From assembly GCA_018901125.1 (NCBI GenBank), contig JAHIFE010000178.1, positions 4,989 to 68,988 on the forward strand: DNA of 64,000 nt, in the 5' to 3' direction. Shown here piece by piece: positions 1 to 50,111 of the stretch (positions are counted from its first letter, which is position 1; each line of letters starts with the position of its first letter). The DNA comes from Pseudomonadota bacterium. Its GTDB lineage: Bacteria > Desulfobacterota > Desulfobacteria > Desulfobacterales > RPRI01. Below the pieces are notes generated by a model. It was not told where the DNA came from. It made no database searches and saw only the letters and a program-made list of their open reading frames with translations. The position numbers and the translations under genes are program-made.

Positions 1-1818
1 TCCTCCTCCCTGAGCTACCTCGGAATAGGACTGGGAAATCCTTTCTATTTCAAGCTCGGTTTGCAACGTGCGATATAGCGATGTACCCGGCATCATATAA
101 TTTAAAACCAGAACCAATCCCTTATCCTCCATTGGCACCAGACTGGATGGCAGCTTATTAACCAGATGAAATATAAGAAATATCATGATGCCAAAAAGCA
201 TAATATTAATTATTGCAGTTTTTATTACCAGTTTAACAACCTTTGTAAAGTTATTGGTTATTTTATCAAACATAACCAGAAACATCCTGATCGGCAGGAT
301 AGGTTTTGAATGTGTCTCTTTTAAAAAGAGTACACAAAGGGCCGGAGTTAGAGTAAGAGCTACAATGCCGGAGATAAAAACCGATATTGCAATTGTGATG
401 GCAAACTGCTGATACATCTTGCCGCTGAATCCACCTATAAAGGAAGCGGGTATAAACACTGCAGAAAGAACAAGAACTATTGCTATAACAGGTGAAGTGA
501 TTTGCTGCATGGCTTTTATAGTTGCTTCTTTTACCGTAAGCTTTTCTTCCCTTAAAATACGCTCCACATTTTCTATAACCACGATGGCATCATCAACCAC
601 AAGTCCTATTGCAAGAATAAGCCCGAACAGAGTTAACAGATTTATAGAAAATCCCGCTGAATAGATACCCGCAAAGGTACCTATAATTGAAACGGGTATT
701 GCCATTACAGGAATAAATGTAGCCCTGAAGTTTCCCAAAAAAACATAAATCACCAGAGTAACAAGAAAAATTGAGATAACAAGAGCAATTATAACTTCTT
801 TTATTGATTCTCTTACAAATCTGGTAATATCATCAACCAGGTTGTATTTTACATCCGGAGGAAAGTTTTTAGACATTTCAGCAAGTTTTTTATTTACCGC
901 ATCTCCAACGGCTACTGCATTAGCACCGGGACTCAAAAAAATACCCATAGCAACACCGGGCTCTCTTTTAAACGAACCTTTCATGCTGTAGTCTTCTGCT
1001 GCAAGTTCCACCCTGGCGACATCTTTTAACCTTAAAGATGAACCATCCCGGCTTGAATGTATAATAATGTTTTCAAATTCTCCAATTGTTTTTAATCTGC
1101 TTTCAGCTCTTACACTGTATGTATAAATCTGTGCCGTTGAGCTGGGCTCCTCGCCGATTCCGCCTGCTGTAAACTGGGCATTCTGACCCTTGATAACATC
1201 GCTTATATCCGAAGGCGTAAGCCCGAAAACAGCCAATTTGTCGGGGTTGAGCCATACTCTCATTGAGTATTTCTTTTCTCCATAAAGAAAAACATCACCA
1301 ACTCCGGGTACTCTTTTCAGATCATCTACCACATTTATCGCAACATAATTTGAAAGAGAGATTATATCCCGCTTTTGATTTTCAGAGATCCAGCACAATA
1401 CTGCAAGCATATCCGGAGAACGTTCACGAACTATAACTCCCTGCTTTTGTACTTCTTCGGGTAAAGTGCTGAGAGCTATCTGTACCCTGTTGTTTACATC
1501 AACGCTTGCCATAGCCGGATCAGTGCCTACATTAAAAAAAATGCTCATCGTCAGTGATCCGTCGGAAGATGCAGTGCTTGATATATAAATCATATCCTTT
1601 ACACCGTTTAGAGAATCTTCAAGCGGTATTGCTACTGTTCTTGAAACGGTATCTGCATCCGCTCCGGGATATACAGCTCTGACTATTATCTGAAGAGGCG
1701 TCAGGGCAGGATACTCCTGGACGGCTAATTCCTTTAGAGCAATGATTCCCGCAAGGGTTATGACAATCGCAATAACTGTGGATAGTAACGGCCTTTCTAT
1801 GAAAAATTTAGAAAACAT
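1..1818 (-). CDS. RND efflux permease subunit (AcrB/MexB HAE1 family), partial: 3' part runs off the left edge
   Basis: Absent from the ORF track because it has no stop in the window. ATG at 1818 reads MFSKFFIERPLLSTVIAIVITLAGI..., with QEYPALTPLQIIVRAVYPGADA and YSMRVWLNPDKL motifs typical of AcrB-family N-termini. Directly downstream of the adaptor gene. Confidence 0.93.
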   Translation of the reverse strand, partial: MFSKFFIERPLLSTVIAIVITLAGIIALKELAVQEYPALTPLQIIVRAVYPGADADTVSRTVAIPLEDSLNGVKDMIYISSTASSDGSLTMSIFFNVGTDPAMASVDVNNRVQIALSTLPEEVQKQGVIVRERSPDMLAVLCWISENQKRDIISLSNYVAINVVDDLKRVPGVGDVFLYGEKKYSMRVWLNPDKLAVFGLTPSDISDVIKGQNAQFTAGGIGEEPSSTAQIYTYSVRAESRLKTIGEFENIIIHSSRDGSSLRLKDVARVELAAEDYSMKGSFKREPGVAMGIFLSPGANAVAVGDAVNKKLAEMSKNFPPDVKYNLVDDITRFVRESIKEVIIALVISIFLVTLVIYVFLGNFRATFIPVMAIPVSIIGTFAGIYSAGFSINLLTLFGLILAIGLVVDDAIVVIENVERILREEKLTVKEATIKAMQQITSPVIAIVLVLSAVFIPASFIGGFSGKMYQQFAITIAISVFISGIVALTLTPALCVLFLKETHSKPILPIRMFLVMFDKITNNFTKVVKLVIKTAIINIMLFGIMIFLIFHLVNKLPSSLVPMEDKGLVLVLNYMMPGTSLYRTLQTELEIERISQSYSEVAQGGG

Positions 1819-1823
1819 AACCC

Positions 1824-2987
1824 TTATGCCTCTTTATTTATAATTTTATCTGTTTTTACCGGCATATCCGGCCTTATTTTGAAGAAATTGTTTACTACAA
1901 CCAGATCGCCCTGATTTAACCCCTTTTCAATAATAAAATCTCCCCCGGAACTTTCACCTACCACAACAGGCCTTATGGCTACTTTCCCATCTTTAACAAT
2001 AAATACAATAGTACCTCCTGGATTTTGAATAACGGCCTGTTGAGGTACAGAAACAGTATTTTTTCTTTTCAGGCCTTCTATCTTGATTCTTACGAACTGC
2101 CCGGGAAGTATTTCTCCTTCCGGATTTGAAAAAATTGCCCTTGCTTTTACGGAAGCAGTTTTTTCATTAATATTTGTATCAACAAAATTGATTACACCTT
2201 TTTTGCTGTATTTCCCATTGTCTGTGATAATCCAGGCCGAAAGCATTTTCCCTGTTTTTGACCAGGAACCGCTTTTTATTTCATATTGTGTTTTAAGAAA
2301 ATCTATATCCGGCAGTGAAAAATCAATATATATTGGATCTGTCTGTGTCAGTGTAACCAGAGGCATGCCGGGTCCGACAAAATTTCCAACATCTACAGAT
2401 CTCAGTCCCGTAACCCCGGATGATGTTGCCCGCACATCGGTATAATTTAGATTAATAGTAGTTTGCAGTAAACGCGCCTTTGCCGCCATAGCTGATGCTT
2501 TGGCTATCTCATATGCTGAAAGAGCCGTATCCCGATCCTGTTCACTAACCACACGATCGTTGAACAGAGCATGGATTCTTTTCCAGTCTCTTTCCGTTTT
2601 ATTTAACTGAGCAAGGGCCTGTTCCAGCAGTGCCTGCGCATTAGCTGTTTCAGCTTCATACATATTCGGTTCAATTTTAAACAGCGGGGCATCTTTTAAA
2701 ACAGATTGGCCTTCCGTAAAAAATTTTTCCTGCAGAATTCCGGAGATCCTTGCCACAAGAGTAACACTGCTCATGCTTTTTGTTCTTGCTGGGTATTCCA
2801 ATTCCACCGGGATATCTTTTAGTTTCGGTACCTGATAAACATCAACAGACACTACGGGCAGCGAATCCATTTTCTTCTGTTCGGATTTAGCTGTTTTATC
2901 CGTTTTCGAACAGGCTGCACCGGATAAAACAAAAAAAATAAGTATGAAAACGGTAAATATGTTTATTGGTAAAATATTTACTCTCAT
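1824..2987 (-). CDS. RND efflux periplasmic adaptor (membrane fusion protein, AcrA/MexA-like)
   Basis: Hydrophobic N-terminus with lipobox-like GAAC, VARISGIL, coiled-coil hairpin, LPGQFVRIKI and VPQQAVI motifs. Start placed at ATG 2987 behind SD AGGAAGGAGA; the ORF track extends to 3044. Confidence 0.92.
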   Translation of the reverse strand: MRVNILPINIFTVFILIFFVLSGAACSKTDKTAKSEQKKMDSLPVVSVDVYQVPKLKDIPVELEYPARTKSMSSVTLVARISGILQEKFFTEGQSVLKDAPLFKIEPNMYEAETANAQALLEQALAQLNKTERDWKRIHALFNDRVVSEQDRDTALSAYEIAKASAMAAKARLLQTTINLNYTDVRATSSGVTGLRSVDVGNFVGPGMPLVTLTQTDPIYIDFSLPDIDFLKTQYEIKSGSWSKTGKMLSAWIITDNGKYSKKGVINFVDTNINEKTASVKARAIFSNPEGEILPGQFVRIKIEGLKRKNTVSVPQQAVIQNPGGTIVFIVKDGKVAIRPVVVGESSGGDFIIEKGLNQGDLVVVNNFFKIRPDMPVKTDKIINKEA

Positions 2988-3037
2988 GATTCTCCTTCCT
3001 AATTGTTCAATATTTTTATAAACTGCGAAGAGTATTT

Positions 3038-3703
3038 TCAACACTCCAATTTTTTAATTTGCGGCTCGTTTTCATCTTTACTGCTTTTAATACTGGTTAA
3101 AAAGAGATCCAGAATTGTTGCTGCATTTTTCGTATAAGGATGCTGCTTGGGATCTCGGAGCCAAAGCAGCAGGAAAGAGCTTATAATACTGTTAAGCGAA
3201 ATTGCGAGATAATATGGAGTGAGCAGCGGTTTAAAAAGTCCTGCTTTAATACCAGCTTCAAAAACATCAGCAAGTTTCATCAGTAGTTTTTCATACAAAA
3301 GCTGGATATCTTCATTAAAGCTGGCGGTTATATATGTGCTTGCCAAATGAGTTCTATCTATATACAGTTTCAAAGTAGCTTCATTTTCCATCAGCACTTC
3401 TCCTTTGACTTTAACATAGTTACGTATTTTTTCAATTTCATTACCCGGTATTTCCAAAGCTTCTATAAAAACGGCATTAGCTTTTTCTGAAAATTCCATA
3501 ATCATTTCAAGGTATAATTCTTCTTTGTTAGGGAAAAATTTATACATCGTCCCGATTGCAAACTCAGCCTTCTTTGCAATTTTATGCATTGAAACATTGT
3601 GGTATCCAAACTCTGAAAAAAGGTCGAGCGCAGCTTTGATTATGTCGTGACGTTGCCGCAACTTCTCCCTTTCCCGTCTTGAGAGTACCTTATTTTTCAT
3701 CAA
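3038..3703 (-). CDS. TetR/AcrR family transcriptional regulator
   Basis: N-terminal HTH IIKAALDLFSEFGYHNVSMHKIAKKAEFAIGTMYKFFPNKEEL; first gene of the efflux operon. Confidence 0.93.
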   Translation of the reverse strand: MMKNKVLSRREREKLRQRHDIIKAALDLFSEFGYHNVSMHKIAKKAEFAIGTMYKFFPNKEELYLEMIMEFSEKANAVFIEALEIPGNEIEKIRNYVKVKGEVLMENEATLKLYIDRTHLASTYITASFNEDIQLLYEKLLMKLADVFEAGIKAGLFKPLLTPYYLAISLNSIISSFLLLWLRDPKQHPYTKNAATILDLFLTSIKSSKDENEPQIKKLEC

Positions 3704-3727
3704 ATAATTTCCTTCTGTTTTAGTTCA

Positions 3728-3783
3728 ATGAGACATTTGTGGAATAGGATGTCACATTATAGAATCAGATGTCACGTTGTCAA
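3728..3783 (-). promoter_or_regulatory. sigma70-type promoter of the tetR-RND operon with overlapping candidate operator
   Basis: Minus strand TTGACA (3783-3778), 16 nt, TATAAT (3761-3756). Imperfect palindrome ATGAGACAT-N12-ATGTCACAT (3728-3757) and direct repeat GATGTCAC (3748, 3768). Confidence 0.55.
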
Positions 3784-3816
3784 TATAAAATACTTCTGGA
3801 ATTAAAATAGATATGA

Positions 3817-3958
3817 GAGCCACTTTCAAAACGTTTCAGTTTGGTCAAGGTCAAGGCGGGTGAAAATTTTAACCGCAGGAATGCATGGGGTATTTCGAGG
3901 ATTATAATTTTCACCCAACGCAGAGATCGGCCAAAATGGGACGTTTTGAAACTGGCTC
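3817..3958 (+). mobile_element. 142-bp MITE-like element, copy 1
   Basis: 18-bp terminal inverted repeat GAGCCACTTTCAAAACGT / ACGTTTTGAAACTGGCTC (1 mismatch), flanked by direct ATGA (3813-3816, 3959-3962). 138/142 identical to the inverted copy at 25216-25357. Confidence 0.85.
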
Positions 3959-4501
3959 ATGATTATATCATTTAATTGTTGTTTTAATGAGATAATTTGG
4001 TTAATCTATTTAAGGAATACTATTTGAAACAAAATTATAATGAGATTTATTATGCCGTTTGATTACACGCTCTGTCAGAAAGATGCTTTAACTCTCGAGT
4101 TGCTTGAAATAAACTCAAGCGGTTCTAATCTCACACCAAGCCATAGCTTGTTTCTCCACCGATCCGTTGTTGAGCTTATTACAAGCGCATCAATTGTAAA
4201 ACTATTGTAAAATTGTTGAAATGTTTTGCAACTAACCTGTTCTTATTTTATAAATTTGCCGATAAGATCGATAAGATATTTAAATTATACTATGAGACCT
4301 TTGCATAACATCCCATTTTTGGCCGATTACTGCCTCAGGCTCAAATCATGTACGAAGAGAAGAGTAAAAGCGACACTCGAAATACTCAATGTATTTATGT
4401 GGTTGCATTTATCGGCTTCTTTGTGCTTGACCCGAACTGGATGTTTTTCAAAGGTTTTACTCTATTAGATAGAATGAATCGCAAAGGAGTTTTTAATTAA
4501 T

Positions 4502-39616: not shown

Positions 39617-39844
39617 TATTAAATCTCCTTTAATAAAGTTCCAAATTGAAAAATCACCAGATTTGTCTGATCCTTATAATTGTAAAATACTGCAAAGTCA
39701 AACAATAAGACTCAATAATTTATACAGATTCATGACAATTGCTGTATGAGTGCGTCAAATTTATTTGACAGTATTTAGATGCCGTTGTATTTTTAAAATA
39801 AACTGCCTATATAAAATGCCTTTTTTAAAACAAATATTATAAGT

Positions 39845-41326
39845 ATGAAAATAAAACTATTTATTCATTTATATACAATATGCCTGTTAACTTTTTTTTT
39901 GCCGCTTGCAACATACGGGGTGGAAAATGTGCGAAAACCCGTATATGCCGGCTCCTTTTACCCATCAGACAAGCACGAATTACAACAAACAATTAACAGT
40001 CTGACAGGCCAGGTCAAAAAAACCGCTTTTGCTGTTCCTTCCCACAAAACATTAAAGGCGCTTATTCTGCCTCATGCAGGTTATATCTATTCCGGGCTTA
40101 CGGCTTCTTATGCATCTTTAGTCCTATCAGAAAATCAATTTTCAAAAGTAATAATAATGGGTCCGGATCACAGAATTGGTTTTAATAATTGCGCTCTTTC
40201 AGATGCCGATGCGTATGAAACACCTCTTGGTTATGCGAGGATTCATAAAGATGCTGAAAAATTGCGCAACAAGAATCAGATGTTCGGATATCTTCCTGTT
40301 TCGGATAAAAACGAGCATTCCATCGAAGTTGTTCTTCCTTTTTTGCAAACTTATCTTAAAAGTTTTGAAATTATTCCTATTGTTATCGGTTCAGGTGATT
40401 ACTGCACAATAGCAGAAGCGATTGGCCCATTGCTTAATGACAAGACACTGCTTGTGGCAAGCTCCGATCTTTCGCATTATCTTGAATACCGGCAAGCTGT
40501 AGAAAAAGATAAAGAAACGATAAACATGGTATTGAACCTCGAAAAAGATAAACTAGTAAAGCGCGATAACAGCGCCTGTGGTAAAATTCCAATTCTTACG
40601 ATCATGGATCTTGCCGGGAAATACGGATGGGAGCCGGTCCTTCTTCATTATGCGAACAGCGGAGAAACAGCCGGGGATCGCTCACGGGTAGTGGGATATG
40701 CAGCAATTGCTTTTTATGGAGAACCTATTATGGAAAAAGAAAGTATTTTAAAAGGACTGAATGAAAAACAGGGGCAAATACTTATCAAACTTGCAAGAAA
40801 AACTATTGCAGACAAGCTTGGTATAAAAAACAAACCCGAACAGGATTTATCCGCTATCAGTGAAGACAAGAGCTTTAAAAGGCTAAGCGGCACTTTTGTT
40901 ACCCTGAAAATTCATGATCAGCTTCGCGGCTGTATCGGGAATCTTGACAACACCGATACAATTACAGAAGGTGTTAAACGTAATGCCATAAATGCGGCAT
41001 TCAATGATTTTCGTTTTTCTCCGCTTACTGCAAAAGAATTTGAAAATGTAGAAATTGAAATAAGCATACTTTCCGAACCAAAACCACTTAAATACAAAGA
41101 TGGCAACGATCTTGTCAAAAAACTACGGCCGAATGTCGATGGTGTGATTATCCGCAAAGGCTTTGCAAGCGCAACTTTTTTGCCTCAGGTGTGGGAACAG
41201 CTGCCGCGTCCCGAAGATTTTCTTACACATCTTTGCATAAAAGCCGGTCTTTCCTCTGATTCATGGAAAAGCTCAAAGCTGGAAGTCCTGACGTATAATG
41301 TTCAATATTTTGAAGAGGAAAAATGA
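39845..41326 (+). CDS. amrB: AmmeMemoRadiSam system protein B (MEMO1) - protein A (AMMECR1) fusion with a signal-peptide-like N-terminus
   Basis: MEMO motifs PHAGYIYSG, GPDH, EHSIEV, SSDLSHY; AMMECR1 motifs FVTL..LRGCIG and FLPQVW. Confidence 0.92.
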   Translation: MKIKLFIHLYTICLLTFFLPLATYGVENVRKPVYAGSFYPSDKHELQQTINSLTGQVKKTAFAVPSHKTLKALILPHAGYIYSGLTASYASLVLSENQFSKVIIMGPDHRIGFNNCALSDADAYETPLGYARIHKDAEKLRNKNQMFGYLPVSDKNEHSIEVVLPFLQTYLKSFEIIPIVIGSGDYCTIAEAIGPLLNDKTLLVASSDLSHYLEYRQAVEKDKETINMVLNLEKDKLVKRDNSACGKIPILTIMDLAGKYGWEPVLLHYANSGETAGDRSRVVGYAAIAFYGEPIMEKESILKGLNEKQGQILIKLARKTIADKLGIKNKPEQDLSAISEDKSFKRLSGTFVTLKIHDQLRGCIGNLDNTDTITEGVKRNAINAAFNDFRFSPLTAKEFENVEIEISILSEPKPLKYKDGNDLVKKLRPNVDGVIIRKGFASATFLPQVWEQLPRPEDFLTHLCIKAGLSSDSWKSSKLEVLTYNVQYFEEEK

Positions 41327-43421
41327 AAGCCGGGTATTACTGGTAGTAATTGCGACAGGCATCTCCTCTGTCGTAACCCAGTTATTGACTATTCGCGAAT
41401 TTTTAGCTCAGTTCCAGGGTAATGAATTCGTAATTGCCCTGATATTATTTTCCTGGCTTGTTCAGGGTGGTATCGGAACTTTCTTCTCACAATTTTATAT
41501 AAAAAGACATTTACCGTCAGCCAAATTTCTTGCTTTTCTTTCCCTGATAGTTGCAGTGCTCCCTGCTTTACAGATTCTTTTAATAAGGCAACTTCGTGAT
41601 GTTCTTTTTATTCATGGAAGTTCAGTAGGATTTTACCCCACATTTGCATTTATTTTTTTAACAACAGCTCCTTACGCTCTTCTTGTAGGTTTTGTCCTTC
41701 CATACAGTCTTTTTGTGTTAAGAGCTTTTCAACCGGACTATCCCGGTACAAACATATATATAGTGGATAATCTTGGAGATATAGCCGGAGGAGCTTTTTT
41801 TTCTTTTTTTCTTGTTTATTTTTTTTCACCGCTTCAATCGGTTTTTATTTCAAACCTTTTTATTCTTGTAGCAACATTTCTTCTTTTAATAAATTCCGGC
41901 ATTTTGCGCATAAAGGCTATTACCTGCGTATGCATTGCCCTTGTAATTCCTGTTTACGCCGTTTTTCTTGAAAATAAATCACTTCTGCCTCGTGAAGGAA
42001 GTCTTGTCTATTATAAGGAGTCAAAATACGGACGAATCGCAGTACATCAGGACAAAGAACAGTTTACTTTAATAGGCGACGGGGTTCCTCTTTTTTCCAA
42101 TCAGAACATTTCAAATGCCGAAGAATCGATTCATTATCCGCTTTCCCAGATATTGCAACCAAAACATATACTTATAATTTCAGCTGAAGGTTCGATTATG
42201 AAAGAAGTGGAGAAATATCATCCGGAAAGCATAGATTATATCGAACTTGATCCGGAAGTATCCGGTGCATTGTTTCGTTTTGGGCTGCTGAAAAAAATTC
42301 CTGGACTCAAGGTGATTAATCAGGATGGCCGCTCGTATCTTGCTCATTCTGATAAAATCTATGATGCGATAATTGTCAACCTGCCTGAGCCTGAAACATA
42401 CCAAATCAACAGATTTTATACCGACGGTTTTTTTGATATAGCAAGAAAACATTTGTCCCAAAATGGGGTTTTAAGCTTTTCAATGCAAGGATATGACAGT
42501 TATCTGGCAGAACCTCAACGCCAGAAAATATCATCGGTTTATAATACCTTGTCAAATCATTTTGACAAAATCCTCCTGCTTCCGGGTGAAAAGGTTTATT
42601 TTTTAGCTTCCAGGTTTTTTCTTGATGCCGATATTCCTTATTTGCTTGATAAAAAGAATATAAAAACCGATTACATCAGCAATTTTTACTACGGCAATCT
42701 TACCGAAGACAGAATCAGTCATTTAAAAGAACTTATTGACCGCACAGCTCCGGTTAATACAGATAATTATCCGCAGCTGATGCGTATTATGTTTGCACAG
42801 TGGTTTTCAAAATTTTCAACATCTCCTTTAGCCTTTATTCTTCTTTTATCGATAGTAAGCATAATATATCTTTTTTATATGAAAAAAGAAGAATTTGTGC
42901 TTTTTTCAACTGGATGTATGGAAATGGGAACCGAGATTCTTGTAATATTTGCTTTTCAGATTTATTTCGGATATATTTATATCAAAATTGGCCTTATTAT
43001 AACCGTGTTTCTTGCAGGCCTCCTTCCCGGGGCCTGGGCAGGAAATAAAACAGCAAATCAATACAGTCATTTTAACAGAGCATCCCTTGCAATAACTGAC
43101 GGAATTCTTATCTTCTTGACAGTACTTTTGATTCTGATCTTTTTAAAGGGCGGGGATAAAATTCCTTTATCCGTTTTTCTGGTATATGGTTTTATAGTAT
43201 CGATGACATGCGGGTTTCAATTCCCAACGGCTCTGAAATTGATGGGAGACAGCAATCCTTCTGTTACAAGGCTTTTTTCCGCCGATCTTATCGGAGCCGC
43301 CGCAGGCACACTTTTAATAAGTGTTGCTATTATCCCCTACTTTGGAATTGTCTGGGCTGCGATTGCGCTGATCGTATTAAAATTGGTCAGTCTGATTTTA
43401 ATGCGCTCTTATAAAGCCTGA
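41298..43421 (+). CDS. Polytopic membrane protein with a central spermidine-synthase-like (SAM-binding fold) domain
   Basis: About 7 N-terminal and 6 C-terminal TM helices, ESKYGRIAV, EESIHYP, IELDPEV, DGR, DAIIVNLPEP, ADLIGAAAG. Start may be TTG 41310. Confidence 0.82.
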   Translation: MFNILKRKNESRVLLVVIATGISSVVTQLLTIREFLAQFQGNEFVIALILFSWLVQGGIGTFFSQFYIKRHLPSAKFLAFLSLIVAVLPALQILLIRQLRDVLFIHGSSVGFYPTFAFIFLTTAPYALLVGFVLPYSLFVLRAFQPDYPGTNIYIVDNLGDIAGGAFFSFFLVYFFSPLQSVFISNLFILVATFLLLINSGILRIKAITCVCIALVIPVYAVFLENKSLLPREGSLVYYKESKYGRIAVHQDKEQFTLIGDGVPLFSNQNISNAEESIHYPLSQILQPKHILIISAEGSIMKEVEKYHPESIDYIELDPEVSGALFRFGLLKKIPGLKVINQDGRSYLAHSDKIYDAIIVNLPEPETYQINRFYTDGFFDIARKHLSQNGVLSFSMQGYDSYLAEPQRQKISSVYNTLSNHFDKILLLPGEKVYFLASRFFLDADIPYLLDKKNIKTDYISNFYYGNLTEDRISHLKELIDRTAPVNTDNYPQLMRIMFAQWFSKFSTSPLAFILLLSIVSIIYLFYMKKEEFVLFSTGCMEMGTEILVIFAFQIYFGYIYIKIGLIITVFLAGLLPGAWAGNKTANQYSHFNRASLAITDGILIFLTVLLILIFLKGGDKIPLSVFLVYGFIVSMTCGFQFPTALKLMGDSNPSVTRLFSADLIGAAAGTLLISVAIIPYFGIVWAAIALIVLKLVSLILMRSYKA

Positions 43422-43423
43422 TT

Positions 43424-43478
43424 AAAGCGAATAACGAATAGCGTATAGCGTACAACGATTTCCGCAATTCACTATCCG
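43424..43478. repeat. Degenerate 7-bp tandem array at a gene junction
   Basis: AAAGCGA ATAACGA ATAGCGT ATAGCGT ACAACGA, then TTTCCGC AATTCAC TATCCG. Confidence 0.7.
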
Positions 43479-43508
43479 GCTTATGATTTGATTAGTAGCC
43501 AGGAGATT

Positions 43509-44705
43509 ATGAACAAAATAAACAGAAGACACTTTATATACAGTACTGCTTTAATTCTTTCGATGCCTGTTGCAGCTCATGCACTTTGGCCTTTAGGTGA
43601 AAAGAAAGCAAATGCTACAGAGTCGGATAATATAAGGGGTACTATATTTAAAGGGGATGCACCGGATAAGCCCGGGAAATGGTCACACGAAGCATTATTA
43701 TATAAAAAGCTTGATAACAATAAGGTGGCATGCGGTATATGTCCTCACAGATGTTTGCTGTCACCGGGAGACAGGAGCGTCTGCCGCTCAAAAGCAAATA
43801 TAGGCGGAATACTTTACAGCCTTTCATACGGAAATCCCTGTACGGTCAATGTTGACCCTGTTGAAAAAAAACCGCTCTTTCACTTTAAACCCCAAACAAA
43901 AGCTTTTTCGGTTGCAGCTGCCGGATGCAATTTCCGTTGTCTGAACTGCCAGAACTGGGAAATTTCACAGGCTAAACCGGGTGAAGTGCGCCACATTGAG
44001 CTTTTTCCCGAAGACGTTGTTAAGGCGGCTTTGAAATCCGGGTCAGAATTAATCGCATGCACATATTCCGAGCCTGTATCCTATATTGAATACATGATGG
44101 ATATAGCACGTATCGCAAAAGAAAAAGGCCTTTCCAATCTTTGGATATCGAATGGTTATATAAACACAAAGCCGCTTCTTGAATTATGCAGATATATTGA
44201 CGGCGCTAATGTTAACCTGAAGTCTTTCAGTGATGAAATATACCAAAAATTAAACGGGGGAAGACTCGAACCTGTTTTAAACACTTTTAAAACCATGAAT
44301 GAGAAAGGCATTCACTTTGAAATGACAAACCTTGTCGTCCCCGGCTATGTCGATGATGTTGAAATGGTTAAACGAATGTGCGGGTGGATTCTGACAAATC
44401 TTGGTCCGGATCATCCTCTTCATTTTCTGCGCTTTTTCCCGCAGTACAAACTTGACAGGCTTGCACCTACCCCCATATCCACTCTTGAAAATTTCAGAAA
44501 CATTGCAATGAATGAAGGCATTCATTACGCATATGTCGGCAATGTCCCGAATCACGAAGGAATGAACACTTACTGTCACAACTGCAAAAAACTGCTTATT
44601 AAACGAAAAGGCTATTTCATACCCGAATACAATCTTTCAGAAAACAGATGCAAATTCTGTAATACTGTTATACCCGGCGTTTGGGGAAAAAATAATAACG
44701 AATAG
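43509..44705 (+). CDS. amrS: AmmeMemoRadiSam radical SAM enzyme with an N-terminal twin-arginine-like signal
   Basis: CNFRCLNC (CxxxCxxC), CGICPHRC, VDPVEKKPLFHF, TYSEP, YVGNV..YCHNC; N-terminus MNKINRRHFIYSTALILSMPVAAHA. Start at 43509 after AGGAG. Confidence 0.93.
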   Translation: MNKINRRHFIYSTALILSMPVAAHALWPLGEKKANATESDNIRGTIFKGDAPDKPGKWSHEALLYKKLDNNKVACGICPHRCLLSPGDRSVCRSKANIGGILYSLSYGNPCTVNVDPVEKKPLFHFKPQTKAFSVAAAGCNFRCLNCQNWEISQAKPGEVRHIELFPEDVVKAALKSGSELIACTYSEPVSYIEYMMDIARIAKEKGLSNLWISNGYINTKPLLELCRYIDGANVNLKSFSDEIYQKLNGGRLEPVLNTFKTMNEKGIHFEMTNLVVPGYVDDVEMVKRMCGWILTNLGPDHPLHFLRFFPQYKLDRLAPTPISTLENFRNIAMNEGIHYAYVGNVPNHEGMNTYCHNCKKLLIKRKGYFIPEYNLSENRCKFCNTVIPGVWGKNNNE

Positions 44706-44743
44706 AGAAATCCGCCATTCACTGTTCGTTGTTTGCTATTCGA
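44695..44743. repeat. Heptamer hairpin supplying the stop codon of the radical SAM gene
   Basis: ATAACGA ATAGAGA AATCCGC CATTCAC TGTTCGT TGTTTGC TATTCGA; forward units followed by reverse-complement units. Confidence 0.7.
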
Positions 44744-44771
44744 ATCTGAATTAAGATGTGGGGGAAAATCC

Positions 44772-47227
44772 ATGAAAACATCTACTCGTCTCTTAATTAT
44801 AAATATCATTGTGTTTATTCTGGCTTTTGCGGTGATAGTTGTGGTTGTTAATCAAAACATGCGCCGACAGGCTCTGTATGAGGCTGAATCCAGGATCAAA
44901 ACAATGGCAGATCAATACTATGCCATTCATACCTATTTTTCGGAAAAATTAAAGCCCGCAATTTTTAAATTAACAGAACCTGTTCGCTCAAAAGAATATT
45001 TTGATCCGGTATGGATGTCTTCAACTCATGCCATTCGCGAGATGGCCAAAGACATAAGAAAACACGGAAATGTAGAATACTATGTAAAAGATGCCGCCAT
45101 CAATGCACGAAATCCAGAAAACGAAGCTACTCCTTTCGAAAAGAAATTTATTATTGAATTAAATATAAATTCAAAACTGCAGGAAAGAAGCAGCATGCAG
45201 GTTTTGGACGGCAAAATTTATTTTATTTATCTTCGCAGGGGCGAACAAATGGAAGAGTCGTGTCTTCGATGCCATAGTATTCCGCAGAATGCGCCAAAAG
45301 ATCTGGTTCAACTTTACGGCTCTTTGCGCGGCTTTAACCGGAAGAAAGGTGATCTGGTATCGCAATTTCTATCCGGGTTCCTTTATCGGCCGCATATGGC
45401 GATGCAAACTATTTTTCATTAAAACTTTCCATATTTTTACTTTTAATAATTATTACGGTTTTTCTTGTTTCTTTATGGTTTAACAGGCGCCATATATATA
45501 AGCCACTTTATGCAATTCATAATAAGGCGCTTGAAATCTCAAACTCACCCGATAAATTGGGGGAAGAAATTCCGCTTCCTTCAGGCAAAGAATTTAAAGA
45601 ACTTGCCATAGCATATAATAAAGTATCGGTCAGGTTGCGATATCATATAGATAACATGGAAAAGCTTATACAGGTACGCACCATAGAGCTTGCAAATGCT
45701 AATGAACAGTTGAAGAATGAAATTAATGAACGAATGCAAATAGATGAGACTTTGCAAAAGACCAATGAATTTCTCGACACGTTAATTAAATCTTCACCTC
45801 TTGCGATATTTTCACTTGATATCAAAGGAACTGTATTATCTTGGAACGAGGCTGCCAAAAAGATATTCGGCTGGCAGAAAAGCGAGGTAATAGGGCGTAT
45901 TGTGCCAAATTTTCATGGTACCGATGGATATGGCCAGCGGGCTTTGCAGGGTGAAGTTTTTACTAATATTGAACTCACTCCACTGAAAAAAGATGGGTTG
46001 CCGACTGATATCAGTTTTTCTACAGCTCCTTTGCGCGATAAAAACGGTAATATTACAGGAATTATCGCTATAATTGCCGATATAACCGAACGCAAAAAAA
46101 TGGAAGAAGAGCTTTTAAAAGCACAGCAGCTTGAATCGATAGGCGTTCTTGCAGGAGTTATGGCACATAATTTTAATAATGTCTTAACTTCCGTTTCAGG
46201 AAATATTCAATTGGCAAAGATGAAGATACAACCGGAAACAAAAGCATTTGATCTGTTAGGCTCGGCGGAAATATCTCTGATCAAGGCTCAGGAACTTTCA
46301 GTCCAATTACTTACCTTTGCCAAAGGCGGCGCTCCGCAAAAGAAAACTATTTCAATTTCAAGTCTTATCAAGGATTCCTGCACTATGGCACAGCAGGGAT
46401 CTAAATCAGAATGTGAATTTTCGATTGAAAAAGATCTGTGGCAGGTAGAAGCAGATAGCGGACAATTAAGCCTTGTATTCAGCAATATTGTTATAAATGC
46501 AAGTCAGGCCATGCCCCAGGGAGGTATTATCAGGGTTGCAGCCAATAATTTAATAGTAGATGCCGGTCAGGATCTGCAATTGGAGCCTGGAAAATATGTT
46601 CATATTTCTGTAGAAGATCAGGGTCCAGGCATACCCGAAAATAATCTTTCGAAGATATTCGATCCTTATTTTACAACAAAAGTTGAGAGTAGCGGCCTTG
46701 GACTTGCAGCGGCTTATTCCATCATAAAAAATCACAACGGGCATATTTATGCTAAATCCCTTCCTGGAGAAGGAACAGTATTTCACATATATTTACCGGC
46801 TTTCGGTGATTTTATTGCGGCAGAAGAAGAAGCAGAACTCTTGACCGGATATGGGAATATTCTTGTAATGGATGATGACAAGATGCTTAAAATAATGGTA
46901 GAAGAGATGCTAAATGTTCTTGGCTATGAGTCCGAGTTTGCAAATGATGGTGATGAAGCTGTTAAAATGTATAAAAAAGCGCTGGAATCAGGCAAACCTT
47001 ACGATGCCGTAATGCTGGATCTTACCATTCCGGGCGGTATGGGAGGAAAGGAAGCTGTGAAAATATTGCTGGAAACAGATCCTAACTTAAAAGCTATTGT
47101 TTTCAGCGGATACTCGGATGATCCGGTTATGTCGAACCATCGCAAATACGGTTTTAAGGGCATGCTGTCAAAACCGTTCAATTTGGAGTCTTTAGGCAAA
47201 GCGCTGCATGATGTTCTTAAAAACTGA
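44772..47227 (+). pseudogene. Frameshifted DUF3365 (CxxCH heme)-HAMP-PAS hybrid histidine kinase/REC
   Basis: ORF 44772-45422 (TM, DUF3365 with CLRCH) continues in the -1 frame from about 45362 as AISIRVPLSAAY..TM2..HAMP, open and in frame with the TTG at 45557. The kinase (AHNFNN) and REC are intact downstream. Confidence 0.8.
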
Positions 47228-48842: not shown

Positions 48843-50111
48843 ATGGATTTTATGGATAATATAAATCCAGGCACAAAAAATATTAACCGTTATTTTATAA
48901 TTCTTATCGTGATCTGGACATTAGGAGTCTTTGCAACTCTTGGATGGGATATATATCAGCTTAAACATTCAACTTTCAGGCTTGCCAATATAAGCGCTGA
49001 AATATCCTACAATAAAGATGCTATTTACCGTCATTGGGCGGCAATGCACGGAGGAGTTTATGTGCCGGTTACCGATACTGATCCTCCCAACCCCTACCTT
49101 AATGTTCCCCACAGGGATATTACTACCACAGAAGGACAGAAGTTCACTCTGATAAACCCCGCTCACATGACACGCCAGGTAAATGAAATAAGTGAGGATG
49201 CGGTTGGATTCAAAGGCCATATCACCAGCCTTAATTGTATCCGGCCTGAAAATTATCCGGACACCTGGGAAACTGAGTCTCTTAAATCCTTTGAGCGCGG
49301 TGTAAAAGAAGCAGCATCTTTTGAAATAAAATCAGGCAAAGAATACTTTCGTTTTATGCGGCCCTTTATTACTGATAAAAGTTGCCTTAAATGTCATGCC
49401 GCGCAGGGATATAAGGAAGGGGATATTCGCGGAGGAATCAGTATATCAATACCCATGGAACCCTTAAGGTCTGTAGAACGATCACAAATTAATGATGTGC
49501 TGATCGCTTACGGCTTTTTGTGGCTGCTTGGAATAGGAGGAATTGCAGTCAGCACGCGGCGTTTGTGGAAACAGCTGGTTTATCGTGAGAAAATAGAGAA
49601 AGAAGTTCTCACCCTGTCTATAACCGACCAGCTGACAGGCCTTTACAACAGAAGAGGATTTTTATCTCTTGCCGACAGACAGCTTAAATTGGCAGACAGG
49701 AATAAAAACGGAATAATGCTCTTTTTCGCAGATCTGGATGGTTTAAAGGATATTAACGACAGATTTGGGCATAAGGAAGGAGATAAGGCGCTTATTGAAG
49801 CAGCAACCGTCTTCAAGGAAACTTTCAGAACATCTGATATAATCGCCCGTCTGGGAGGAGATGAATTTGCTGCTCTTGCAATAGATATACAAGAGAAAAA
49901 TTCCGAAATCTTTACTTCCCGATTACAGTACCTGACAGAAATGCAAAATAAACAGGAAAACCGGACATACAAACTGTCAATCAGTATCGGCGGTTCTTTC
50001 CAGGATCCTGAAAATCCCAGGTCAATTGACGAACTTATATCACAGGCTGATAAATTGATGTATGAGCAGAAAAAACAAAAGAAATCATATTCTAATTCGA
50101 GCAACGAATAG
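48843..50111 (+). CDS. DUF3365 heme-c sensor diguanylate cyclase
   Basis: TM-periplasmic domain with WAAMHGGVYV, LINPAHMTR and CLKCH-TM; DQLTGLYNRR, RTSDIIARLGGDEF. Confidence 0.92.
   Translation: MDFMDNINPGTKNINRYFIILIVIWTLGVFATLGWDIYQLKHSTFRLANISAEISYNKDAIYRHWAAMHGGVYVPVTDTDPPNPYLNVPHRDITTTEGQKFTLINPAHMTRQVNEISEDAVGFKGHITSLNCIRPENYPDTWETESLKSFERGVKEAASFEIKSGKEYFRFMRPFITDKSCLKCHAAQGYKEGDIRGGISISIPMEPLRSVERSQINDVLIAYGFLWLLGIGGIAVSTRRLWKQLVYREKIEKEVLTLSITDQLTGLYNRRGFLSLADRQLKLADRNKNGIMLFFADLDGLKDINDRFGHKEGDKALIEAATVFKETFRTSDIIARLGGDEFAALAIDIQEKNSEIFTSRLQYLTEMQNKQENRTYKLSISIGGSFQDPENPRSIDELISQADKLMYEQKKQKKSYSNSSNE

Follow-up and report, generated by a model that had tools for sequence, protein, structure and literature searches.

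The AmmeMemoRadiSam system is represented in NCBIfam by three models, AmrA/AMMECR1 (TIGR04335), AmrB/Memo (TIGR04336), and the radical SAM component AmrS (TIGR04337), and the function of this Memo/AMMECR1/radical SAM trio has long been unexplained, although a role in RNA-base modification has been proposed (PMC2034487). The usual, if implicit, property of these components is that they are soluble cytoplasmic proteins without targeting signals. To our knowledge, radical SAM enzymes in general are treated as strictly cytoplasmic, because they need SAM, a low-potential electron donor, and protection of their clusters; pyruvate formate-lyase activating enzyme (PflA), for example, is cytoplasmic and is reduced by flavodoxin. 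On the other hand, the twin-arginine (Tat) pathway carries folded, ligand-loaded proteins, including Fe-S proteins such as hydrogenase small subunits, NapG-type ferredoxins, and Rieske proteins, and flavinylated extracytosolic electron-transfer systems (NapH-like/NosR/PceC, DsbD-type) have been described as carrying electrons across the membrane (Meheust et al. 2021, PMC8238504).

Here we describe a three-gene putative operon from a sulfate-reducer-type bacterium, found in a 64,000-nucleotide stretch of DNA (the window; contig JAHIFE010000178.1, assembly GCA_018901125.1), that encodes a radical SAM enzyme, its Memo-AMMECR1 partner, and a predicted 14-helix membrane protein, the working domains of all three being predicted to lie outside the cytoplasmic membrane. 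No radical SAM enzyme has been described in that location, and no description of this variant was found, in the literature that we could search. A sequence-only reading of the window had proposed a Tat-type signal on AmrS and a Sec-type signal on the fusion, and inferred from these a periplasmic or membrane-tethered variant acting on an extracytoplasmic substrate. The three open reading frames and both N-termini are confirmed, and the inference is supported, in that every computational test that could have rejected it failed to do so. The features of the locus are collected in the table below, with positions numbered from the first letter of the window.

Features of the AmrS/Memo-AMMECR1/membrane protein locus
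Positions	Strand	Feature	Residues	Remarks
39765..39793	+	Promoter-like site		TTGACA, 17-nt spacer, TATTTT; about 52 nt upstream of the first gene; 10 of 12 matches, a consensus match only
39845..41326		Memo-AMMECR1 fusion	493 aa	
39845..39919	+	Predicted Sec-type signal peptide of the fusion	1-25	MKIKLFIHLYTICLLTFFLPLATYG; predicted cleavage before VENVRKP
39932..40714	+	Memo (AmrB) domain	30-290	Nearest solved structure MEMO1, 3bcz
40778..41311	+	AMMECR1 (AmrA) domain	312-489	LRGCIG motif; nearest solved structure 1wsc at 1.9e-31
41298..43421	+	Predicted 14-helix membrane protein	707 aa	Start overlaps the end of the first gene by 29 nt; TM1-7 span aa 8-223 and TM8-14 span aa 511-703
42000..42737	+	Spermidine-synthase-fold domain of the membrane protein, predicted to face the periplasm	235-480	
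43422..43508	+	Intergenic spacer		Shine-Dalgarno AGGAG at 43501-43505
43509..44705		AmrS		
43509..43583	+	Predicted twin-arginine signal peptide of AmrS	1-25	MNKINRRHFIYSTALILSMPVAAHA; predicted cleavage before LWPL
43626..43685	+	N-terminal cap specific to the exported clade	40-59	NIRGTIFKGDAPDKPGKWS-type; absent from the signal-less paralogue
43686..44705	+	AmrS radical SAM core	60-398 plus stop	CNFRCLNC cluster motif, N-terminal Cys group, C-terminal CxxC…CxxC ribbon

In the first gene product, Pfam places Memo at residues 32-288 (PF01875 at 9.7e-54) and AMMECR1 at 315-489, while TIGR04336 and TIGR04335 score 235.5 and 199.3 bits, both above cut-off. AmrS matches TIGR04337 at 339.6 bits against a cut-off of 220, with the radical SAM cysteines C140, C144, and C147 invariant; a haem-c CxxCH motif is absent. 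The only family hit of the middle gene product is PF01564, over residues 278-398.

The two N-terminal signals are not chance, although their prediction rests on motif, hydropathy, and conservation rather than on a dedicated signal-peptide predictor. For AmrS (NRRHFIY…AHA), the RRxF[LI] motif is present in 120 of 120 nearest homologues (67-90% identical), with R6 and R7 invariant in a 36-sequence alignment. AxA or CxA precedes the mature part in 61 of about 100 scored homologues, and other small-x-small pairs occur in a further 10-15. The hydropathy of the h-region is 1.8 here and 1.58 +/- 0.27 across the 120 homologues, lower than in the Sec signals, and the genome encodes TatC (232 bits, above cut-off). 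An AlphaFold2 model of AmrS separates a signal helix at residues 6-17 and a disordered stretch at 19-39 from a confident core that starts near residue 41. For the Memo-AMMECR1 fusion, the signal reads MKIK / LFIHLYTICLLTFFLPL / ATYG, with a best 12-mer hydropathy of 2.2. All 59 related loci with a readable N-terminus show an N-terminal hydrophobic segment ahead of the Memo domain, and in the 47 for which a motif search located the Memo start, the best hydrophobic 12-mer scores 2.3-3.3 (Kyte-Doolittle). Most show a Lys/Arg n-region and a small-x-small (AxA-type) site about 30 residues before the first Memo motif [VI]R[KE]P, although the sequence itself drifts.

One might ask whether these “signals” are simply untranslated leader, with the true starts lying downstream. 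In-frame GTG codons do exist at residues 26 and 29 of the fusion, just where the Memo model begins, and no clear Shine-Dalgarno sequence precedes the ATG at 39845. However, the upstream frames stay open and keep a signal-like pattern in 59 loci despite sequence drift, and in AmrS both the RR pair and the cap that follows the signal are invariant or nearly so at the protein level (I42, G44, P52, and W58 are invariant, and the cap is modelled with pLDDT 88-93). The Shine-Dalgarno sequence precedes the AmrS ATG at 43509, which is the likely start, since homologues begin MKKISRR; the longer TTG open reading frame from 43488 is probably not used. We consider such an annotation artefact very unlikely.

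The membrane protein encoded between the two agrees with this picture. AlphaFold2 models it confidently (pLDDT 87, pTM 0.85) as seven membrane helices, a spermidine-synthase-fold domain, and then seven more helices, and Lys/Arg counts over 61 homologues (18.0 inside against 4.4 outside) predict that this domain, too, lies in the periplasm, with the same bias seen in two distant homologues (16/6 and 18/4). An alternative possibility is that the N-terminal segments are membrane anchors or chaperone-binding remnants, like the vestigial twin-arginine motif of NarG, with the catalytic domains remaining on the cytoplasmic face, docked to the membrane protein. This would remove the problem of SAM and reductant supply, and the topology does rest on prediction alone. 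The AMMECR1 of the window is, moreover, the only one found in this genome, so that it might also have to serve the signal-less AmrS and AmrB encoded elsewhere in it, and some relatives carry a Sec-like rather than Tat-like N-terminus ahead of an Fe-S domain, which is hard to reconcile with export of a cluster-bearing enzyme. Against this alternative, a small-x-small site directly follows the hydrophobic core in both proteins, the Lys/Arg n-region precedes the helix, favouring an N-in, C-out orientation, the 7+7 helix count and charge bias place the partner domain outside, and FMN_bind domains with SGAT motifs, found in sister forms of AmrS, are characteristically extracytosolic (PMC8238504). 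We regard this alternative as unlikely.

The three genes travel together, the cassette being complete, in the same order, in 58 of 61 related loci. The system is present in the cultured strains Desulfosarcina widdelii PP31 and Desulfosudis oleivorans, while the sequence itself was found only in groundwater and coal DNA metagenomes. The trio of signal-bearing Memo-AMMECR1, Tat-AmrS, and a Spermine_synth membrane protein recurs in distant lineages with AmrS only 42-49% identical. On a tree of 142 AmrS cores, all 35 Tat forms and all 18 membrane or signal fusions fall on one side of a single branch, albeit with only moderate support (SH-aLRT 85), and the other 81 rows contain none. The statement in the sequence-only reading that such trios are generally regarded as cytoplasmic needs correction: it holds for the canonical half of the family only, about a third of the nearest 142 cluster representatives carrying Tat signals or membrane fusions. 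Among the sister forms are a TM anchor followed by FMN_bind (with the SGAT flavinylation motif) and AmrS, with no helix in between, as well as fusions to NapH-like and DsbD_2 electron-conduit modules. One sister operon encodes a DsbD_2/Fer4_5 membrane protein, an FMN_bind-AmrS, and then a full-length homologue of the 14-helix protein.

The concern of the sequence-only reading over SAM and a low-potential reductant is legitimate and remains unsolved for this clade. No source of either outside the cytoplasm is known, and no electron conduit is encoded in the cassette. A search for a conserved fourth gene, such as an electron donor or chaperone, across 80 loci found none, the next most frequent neighbour, an aldehyde:ferredoxin-oxidoreductase-like gene, occurring in only 24. 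One way around the difficulty is that export is real but that AmrS does not turn over outside. It could leave the cytoplasm with SAM already bound and act once, for example by installing a radical or a modification on the Memo-AMMECR1 partner in the way that PFL-activating enzyme acts on its target, or it could use SAM as a regenerated cofactor, so that no outside supply is needed. AmrS is indeed closest in sequence and fold to that enzyme, which acts on a protein, and no SAM exporter has been demonstrated. However, the dedicated modules fused to or beside AmrS in sister clades point to a repeated electron supply, the conserved adenosyl-type domain predicted on the outside suggests ongoing handling of a nucleoside ligand, and no glycyl-radical-type partner is present among the conserved neighbours. 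This explanation, too, appears unlikely.

We consider it probable, in the absence of experimental data, that the putative operon encodes an AmmeMemoRadiSam system working on the outer face of the cytoplasmic membrane. We infer that AmrS receives its Fe-S clusters in the cytoplasm, crosses folded through TatABC, and is cleaved after AHA or stays tethered; that the Memo-AMMECR1 fusion crosses unfolded through Sec and is cleaved after TYG; and that the three assemble at the membrane protein. The outward domain of that protein keeps the residues that hold an adenosyl group in spermidine synthases (Glu316, Asp343, Gly298-Gly299) but has lost the catalytic aspartate, and it therefore more likely holds or hands over SAM, or a by-product such as 5'-deoxyadenosine or MTA, while the transporter-like helices bring SAM or the substrate across. 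This last step is tentative, the role of the membrane protein in SAM supply being a guess. The glycine loop is degenerate, Pfam searches of the two helical halves at E up to 10 found nothing, a colinear internal repeat scores only E 0.31, and the Foldseek match to the 14-helix PepTSt (E 4.5e-4) has poor rmsd, and we do not claim an MFS fold. Electrons would come, in this view, from periplasmic low-potential carriers of sulfate reducers, and the substrate would be an unknown envelope molecule. A broader reading, possible but somewhat less likely than not, is that a whole branch of the AmrS family catalyses outside the cytoplasm, with the 14-helix partner a dedicated exporter and presenter of SAM (or remover of 5'-deoxyadenosine/MTA), with electrons arriving either through fused FMN_bind/NapH-like/DsbD_2 conduits or from such periplasmic carriers, and with a component of the cell envelope as the target. 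A conserved, widespread set of radical SAM enzymes built for export would imply that SAM or a relative is made available outside the membrane, that low-potential electrons are delivered there, and that the trio has at least one envelope substrate, giving a new handle on the function of Memo and AMMECR1, both of which have human disease-linked homologues.

Compared with the canonical AmmeMemoRadiSam system, the locus matches all three family models, its genes are co-located, and the CX3CX2C, Memo metal-site, and AMMECR1 LRGCIG motifs are all present, but both soluble proteins carry predicted export signals, AmrB and AmrA are fused, and a predicted 14-helix membrane protein is inserted. Canonical forms, such as the 336-aa AmrS of this same genome (which starts MEALLYEQL), have none of these and lie on the other side of the tree, and the proposed RNA-base-modification role cannot apply outside the cytoplasm. 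PflA (PDB 3c8f, 3cb8) is the nearest solved structure to AmrS by sequence (1.7e-11) and by fold (3c8f, E 3.5e-15, target-normalised TM-score 0.78), yet the PflA equivalog score is far below cut-off (54 against 232 bits), and AmrS has extra N- and C-terminal Cys motifs. The flavinylated electron-transfer systems share FMN_bind, Fer4_5, and DsbD_2 modules with sister AmrS clades but not with the cassette described here, and the paper describing them does not mention radical SAM, Memo, or AMMECR1 (PMC8238504). As for membrane-bound spermidine-synthase-like proteins (PRK03612; “fused MFS/spermidine synthase” NF037959), the N-terminal helices plus the aminopropyltransferase fold of the middle protein align to PRK03612 over model positions 18-414, and the fold matches spermidine synthases (Foldseek to 1uir at 5.7e-11; HMM against 2o05 at 6.5e-16). 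The score, however, is far below the equivalog cut-off (94 against 472 bits), a second set of seven helices follows the domain, S-AEGG replaces the GGGDGG dcSAM loop and NLPEP replaces DSSDP, and the domain is predicted to face outward. Finally, Tat-exported Fe-S proteins likewise have a twin-arginine signal on a protein that must acquire its clusters before crossing the membrane, but none of those named above is a radical SAM enzyme, and none needs a nucleoside co-substrate outside the cell.

Three genes lie head to tail on the plus strand, as collected with the other features discussed here in the table below. The first encodes a 493-aa Memo-AMMECR1 fusion, for which Pfam places Memo at residues 32-288 and AMMECR1 at residues 315-489, and for which NCBIfam gives TIGR04336 at 235.5 bits and TIGR04335 at 199.3 bits. 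The second, encoding a protein of 707 aa, overlaps the first by 29 nt, and its only family hit is the spermidine-synthase domain over residues 278-398. The third is AmrS, with TIGR04337 at 339.6 bits against a cut-off of 220; its most likely start is an ATG that is preceded by AGGAG and that matches the MKKISRR starts of homologues. A promoter-like site lies about 52 nt upstream of the first gene. The sequence occurs in groundwater and coal metagenomes, and its nearest named relatives are Desulfobacterium sp. N47 and Desulfonema limicola.

Positions of the cassette, its surroundings and the related loci considered in the text.
Feature	Sequence	Position	Strand
Three-gene cassette (Memo-AMMECR1 fusion, membrane protein, AmrS)	Window	39845-44705	+
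Most likely ATG start of AmrS	Window	43509	+
Spacer before AmrS, with short repeat units	Window	43422-43508	
Junction after AmrS, with short repeat units	Window	44695-44743	
Membrane-anchored Tll0287-like domain (CLRCH)	Window	44733-45422	
Histidine-kinase ORF	Window	45557-47227	
Tll0287-like domain (CLKCH) fused to GGDEF-type output	Window	48843-50111	
Signal-less AmrS of the same genome	L001 (G000:C189)	1501-2511	-
Signal-less AmrB of the same genome	L005 (G000:C101)	1498-2379	-
Aldehyde:ferredoxin-oxidoreductase-like gene near a related cassette	L016	190-2154	
BcrAD_BadFG/DUF2229 protein upstream of the FMN_bind-AmrS operon	L090 / L091	1-2730 / 1-4177	
Tat-AmrS and Memo-AMMECR1 pair with following genes, Desulfatibacillaceae relative	L096	7104-11909	

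The export signals of this cassette are real features rather than chance resemblances. All 120 best AmrS homologues (67-90% identical) keep the RRxF[LI] motif and a hydrophobic stretch, and most keep an AxA-type site. Following the signal is a conserved segment, DIRGxVFKGDAPxKLWKWS, which the canonical enzyme lacks. Because that segment is conserved as protein, and because R6 and R7 are invariant, translation cannot start downstream. An AlphaFold2 model built on a 76-sequence alignment shows a short helix at residues 6-17, a disordered stretch at 19-39, and a confident core beginning near residue 41, which is the picture expected for a signal peptide plus linker. For the fusion protein, the N-termini of 59 homologues from related loci were read. 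All have an N-terminal hydrophobic segment, and most show a Lys/Arg n-region and a small-x-small site about 30 residues before the first Memo motif, although the sequences themselves differ widely. The Tat h-regions are less hydrophobic (best 12-mer 1.58 +/- 0.27) than the Sec ones (2.3-3.3), as is typical of the two pathways, and TatC is present in the genome.

The same genome provides a useful contrast, in that it holds elsewhere a signal-less AmrS of 336 aa, overlapped at its 5' end by a class-I methyltransferase-like gene, and a separate signal-less AmrB of 293 aa, which show what the canonical N-termini look like. No second AMMECR1 was found in this assembly, which is 98% complete rather than closed, so that the cytoplasmic set looks incomplete. 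That the genome's only AMMECR1 should be the exported one is odd if the signal-less AmrS and AmrB also need one, and this argues against the export reading.

The membrane protein points in the same direction as the signals. AlphaFold2 (61 sequences, pLDDT 87, pTM 0.85) gives seven helices, a soluble domain at 235-480, and then seven further helices, a count that would place the N-terminus and the soluble domain on opposite sides of the membrane. Averaged over 61 homologues, the loops on the N-terminal side hold 18.0 Lys/Arg and those on the other side hold 4.4, while two distant homologues give 16/6 and 18/4; by the positive-inside rule, then, the soluble domain is predicted to be periplasmic. 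The modelled domain has the spermidine synthase fold (1uir, E 5.7e-11). Upon alignment to human spermidine synthase, one sees that it keeps the Glu that binds the ribose (E316), the Asp that binds the adenine (D343) and two loop glycines, whereas GGGDGG becomes S-AEGG and the catalytic D-S-S-D-P becomes N-L-P-E-P. It is therefore not an aminopropyltransferase, but it may still hold an adenosyl ligand. The helices carry many invariant polar residues, which argues for a working membrane domain rather than a mere anchor, although the evidence for a transporter fold is weak.

The cassette behaves as a unit. Of 61 related loci with enough upstream DNA, 58 have fusion, membrane protein and AmrS in that order. 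Three relatives (L030/L006 (CP070697), L060 and L084) keep the Tat-AmrS but lack the Memo-AMMECR1 fusion nearby, and in L030 the membrane gene is truncated at its 5' end; these may be decaying copies. No fourth gene is conserved. An aldehyde:ferredoxin-oxidoreductase-like gene of about 600 aa lies near the cassette in 24 of 80 related loci, including L016, but this probably reflects shared synteny rather than function. Nor is the gene just downstream of AmrS in the window conserved next to the cassette in relatives. It encodes a membrane-anchored Tll0287-like domain with a haem-c-type CLRCH motif and ends before a separate histidine-kinase ORF; a paralogous Tll0287-like domain (CLKCH) is fused to a GGDEF-type output. 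The first may be a split sensor. Short repeat units of the CGAAT/ATAGCG type fill the spacer before AmrS and the junction after it. A profile of the AmrS N-terminus finds this type in 20 of 401 genomes of the phylum (19 of 255 genera), while TIGR04337 itself is found in 377 of 401, often in several copies. This type is therefore an extra, patchily distributed paralogue.

To place this form within the wider family, we searched 1.84 billion cluster representatives with AmrS and classified the N-termini of the best 150, of which thirty-five have Tat signals and eighteen have membrane or signal-type fusions. Several of the closest non-self hits are fusions: a TM anchor, an FMN_bind domain with an SGAT flavinylation motif and AmrS, with no helix in between (representatives P0124 and P0143); FMN_bind with NapH-like Fer4_5 helices and AmrS; DsbD_2 with AmrS; a signal and CBM11 with AmrS; and a signal-bearing Memo-AMMECR1-AmrS triple fusion. 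In the operon of P0124 (L090), a DsbD_2/Fer4_5 membrane protein precedes the FMN_bind-AmrS gene, and a full-length homologue of the window's 14-helix protein follows it (22% identity over 715 residues, E 1e-28). FMN_bind, NapH-like and DsbD-type modules are the components described for carrying electrons to extracytosolic enzymes (PMC8238504), in a paper that does not mention radical SAM, Memo or AMMECR1. Upstream of this operon lies a large BcrAD_BadFG/DUF2229 “CoA enzyme activase”-type protein, of a class of ATP-driven low-potential electron donors, so that it may be the cytoplasmic source of electrons for that sister system.

Two distant Tat-AmrS loci (42% and 49% identity) again have signal-bearing Memo-AMMECR1 fusions, and one of these also has a Spermine_synth membrane protein. 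On a tree of 142 AmrS cores built without the N-terminal extensions, all Tat and fusion forms fall on one side of a branch that has only moderate support (SH-aLRT 85), and the 81 rows on the other side contain none. One Tat-bearing representative is from Armatimonadota, so the type is not confined to one phylum. On the other hand, some relatives put a Sec-like or non-RR hydrophobic N-terminus in front of an Fe-S domain, and such a domain should not survive Sec export. The 835-aa representative P0137, for example, is a Memo-AMMECR1-AmrS triple fusion with a Sec-like, non-RR N-terminus (MKNNKFIKILIFTFLTISF…); were it exported by Sec, its Fe-S clusters would have to be inserted outside the cytoplasm, which is unexplained. 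In view of such forms, and of the single AMMECR1, an arrangement in which the proteins are docked to the membrane but face the cytoplasm remains possible, though we consider it unlikely.

On the strength of sequence analysis alone, the system most likely works as follows. AmrS is inferred to be loaded with clusters in the cytoplasm and exported folded by Tat, the fusion to pass through Sec, and the three proteins to meet on the outer face of the membrane. The supply of SAM is the weakest step. Our preferred guess, which is no more than tentative, is that the 14-helix protein brings SAM across, or holds it or its by-products on the outward adenosyl-type domain. The alternative, that AmrS leaves with SAM already bound and acts once or regenerates it, remains possible, although it seems unlikely. 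As for the reductant, sister clades appear to solve the problem with fused flavin and Fe-S conduits, but this clade encodes none; the periplasmic low-potential carriers established for sulfate reducers (hydrogenase, formate dehydrogenase, cytochrome c3) would be the obvious candidates. The substrate is unknown, and the RNA-base-modification idea for AMMECR1 (PMC2034487) cannot hold for an exported form. In the Desulfatibacillaceae relative (locus L096), the Tat-AmrS and signal-bearing Memo-AMMECR1 pair is followed by a GT4 glycosyltransferase, a histidine phosphatase, a START lipid-binding protein and an alkaline ceramidase, which hints at a lipid substrate.

In the literature we searched, no paper describes exported radical SAM enzymes or this cassette, and the reading offered here contradicts a common assumption. 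AmrS is nearest to PFL-activating enzyme in both sequence and fold but is not an equivalog of it. By all sequence criteria the system is a member of the AmmeMemoRadiSam family, but it departs from that family's cytoplasmic habit.
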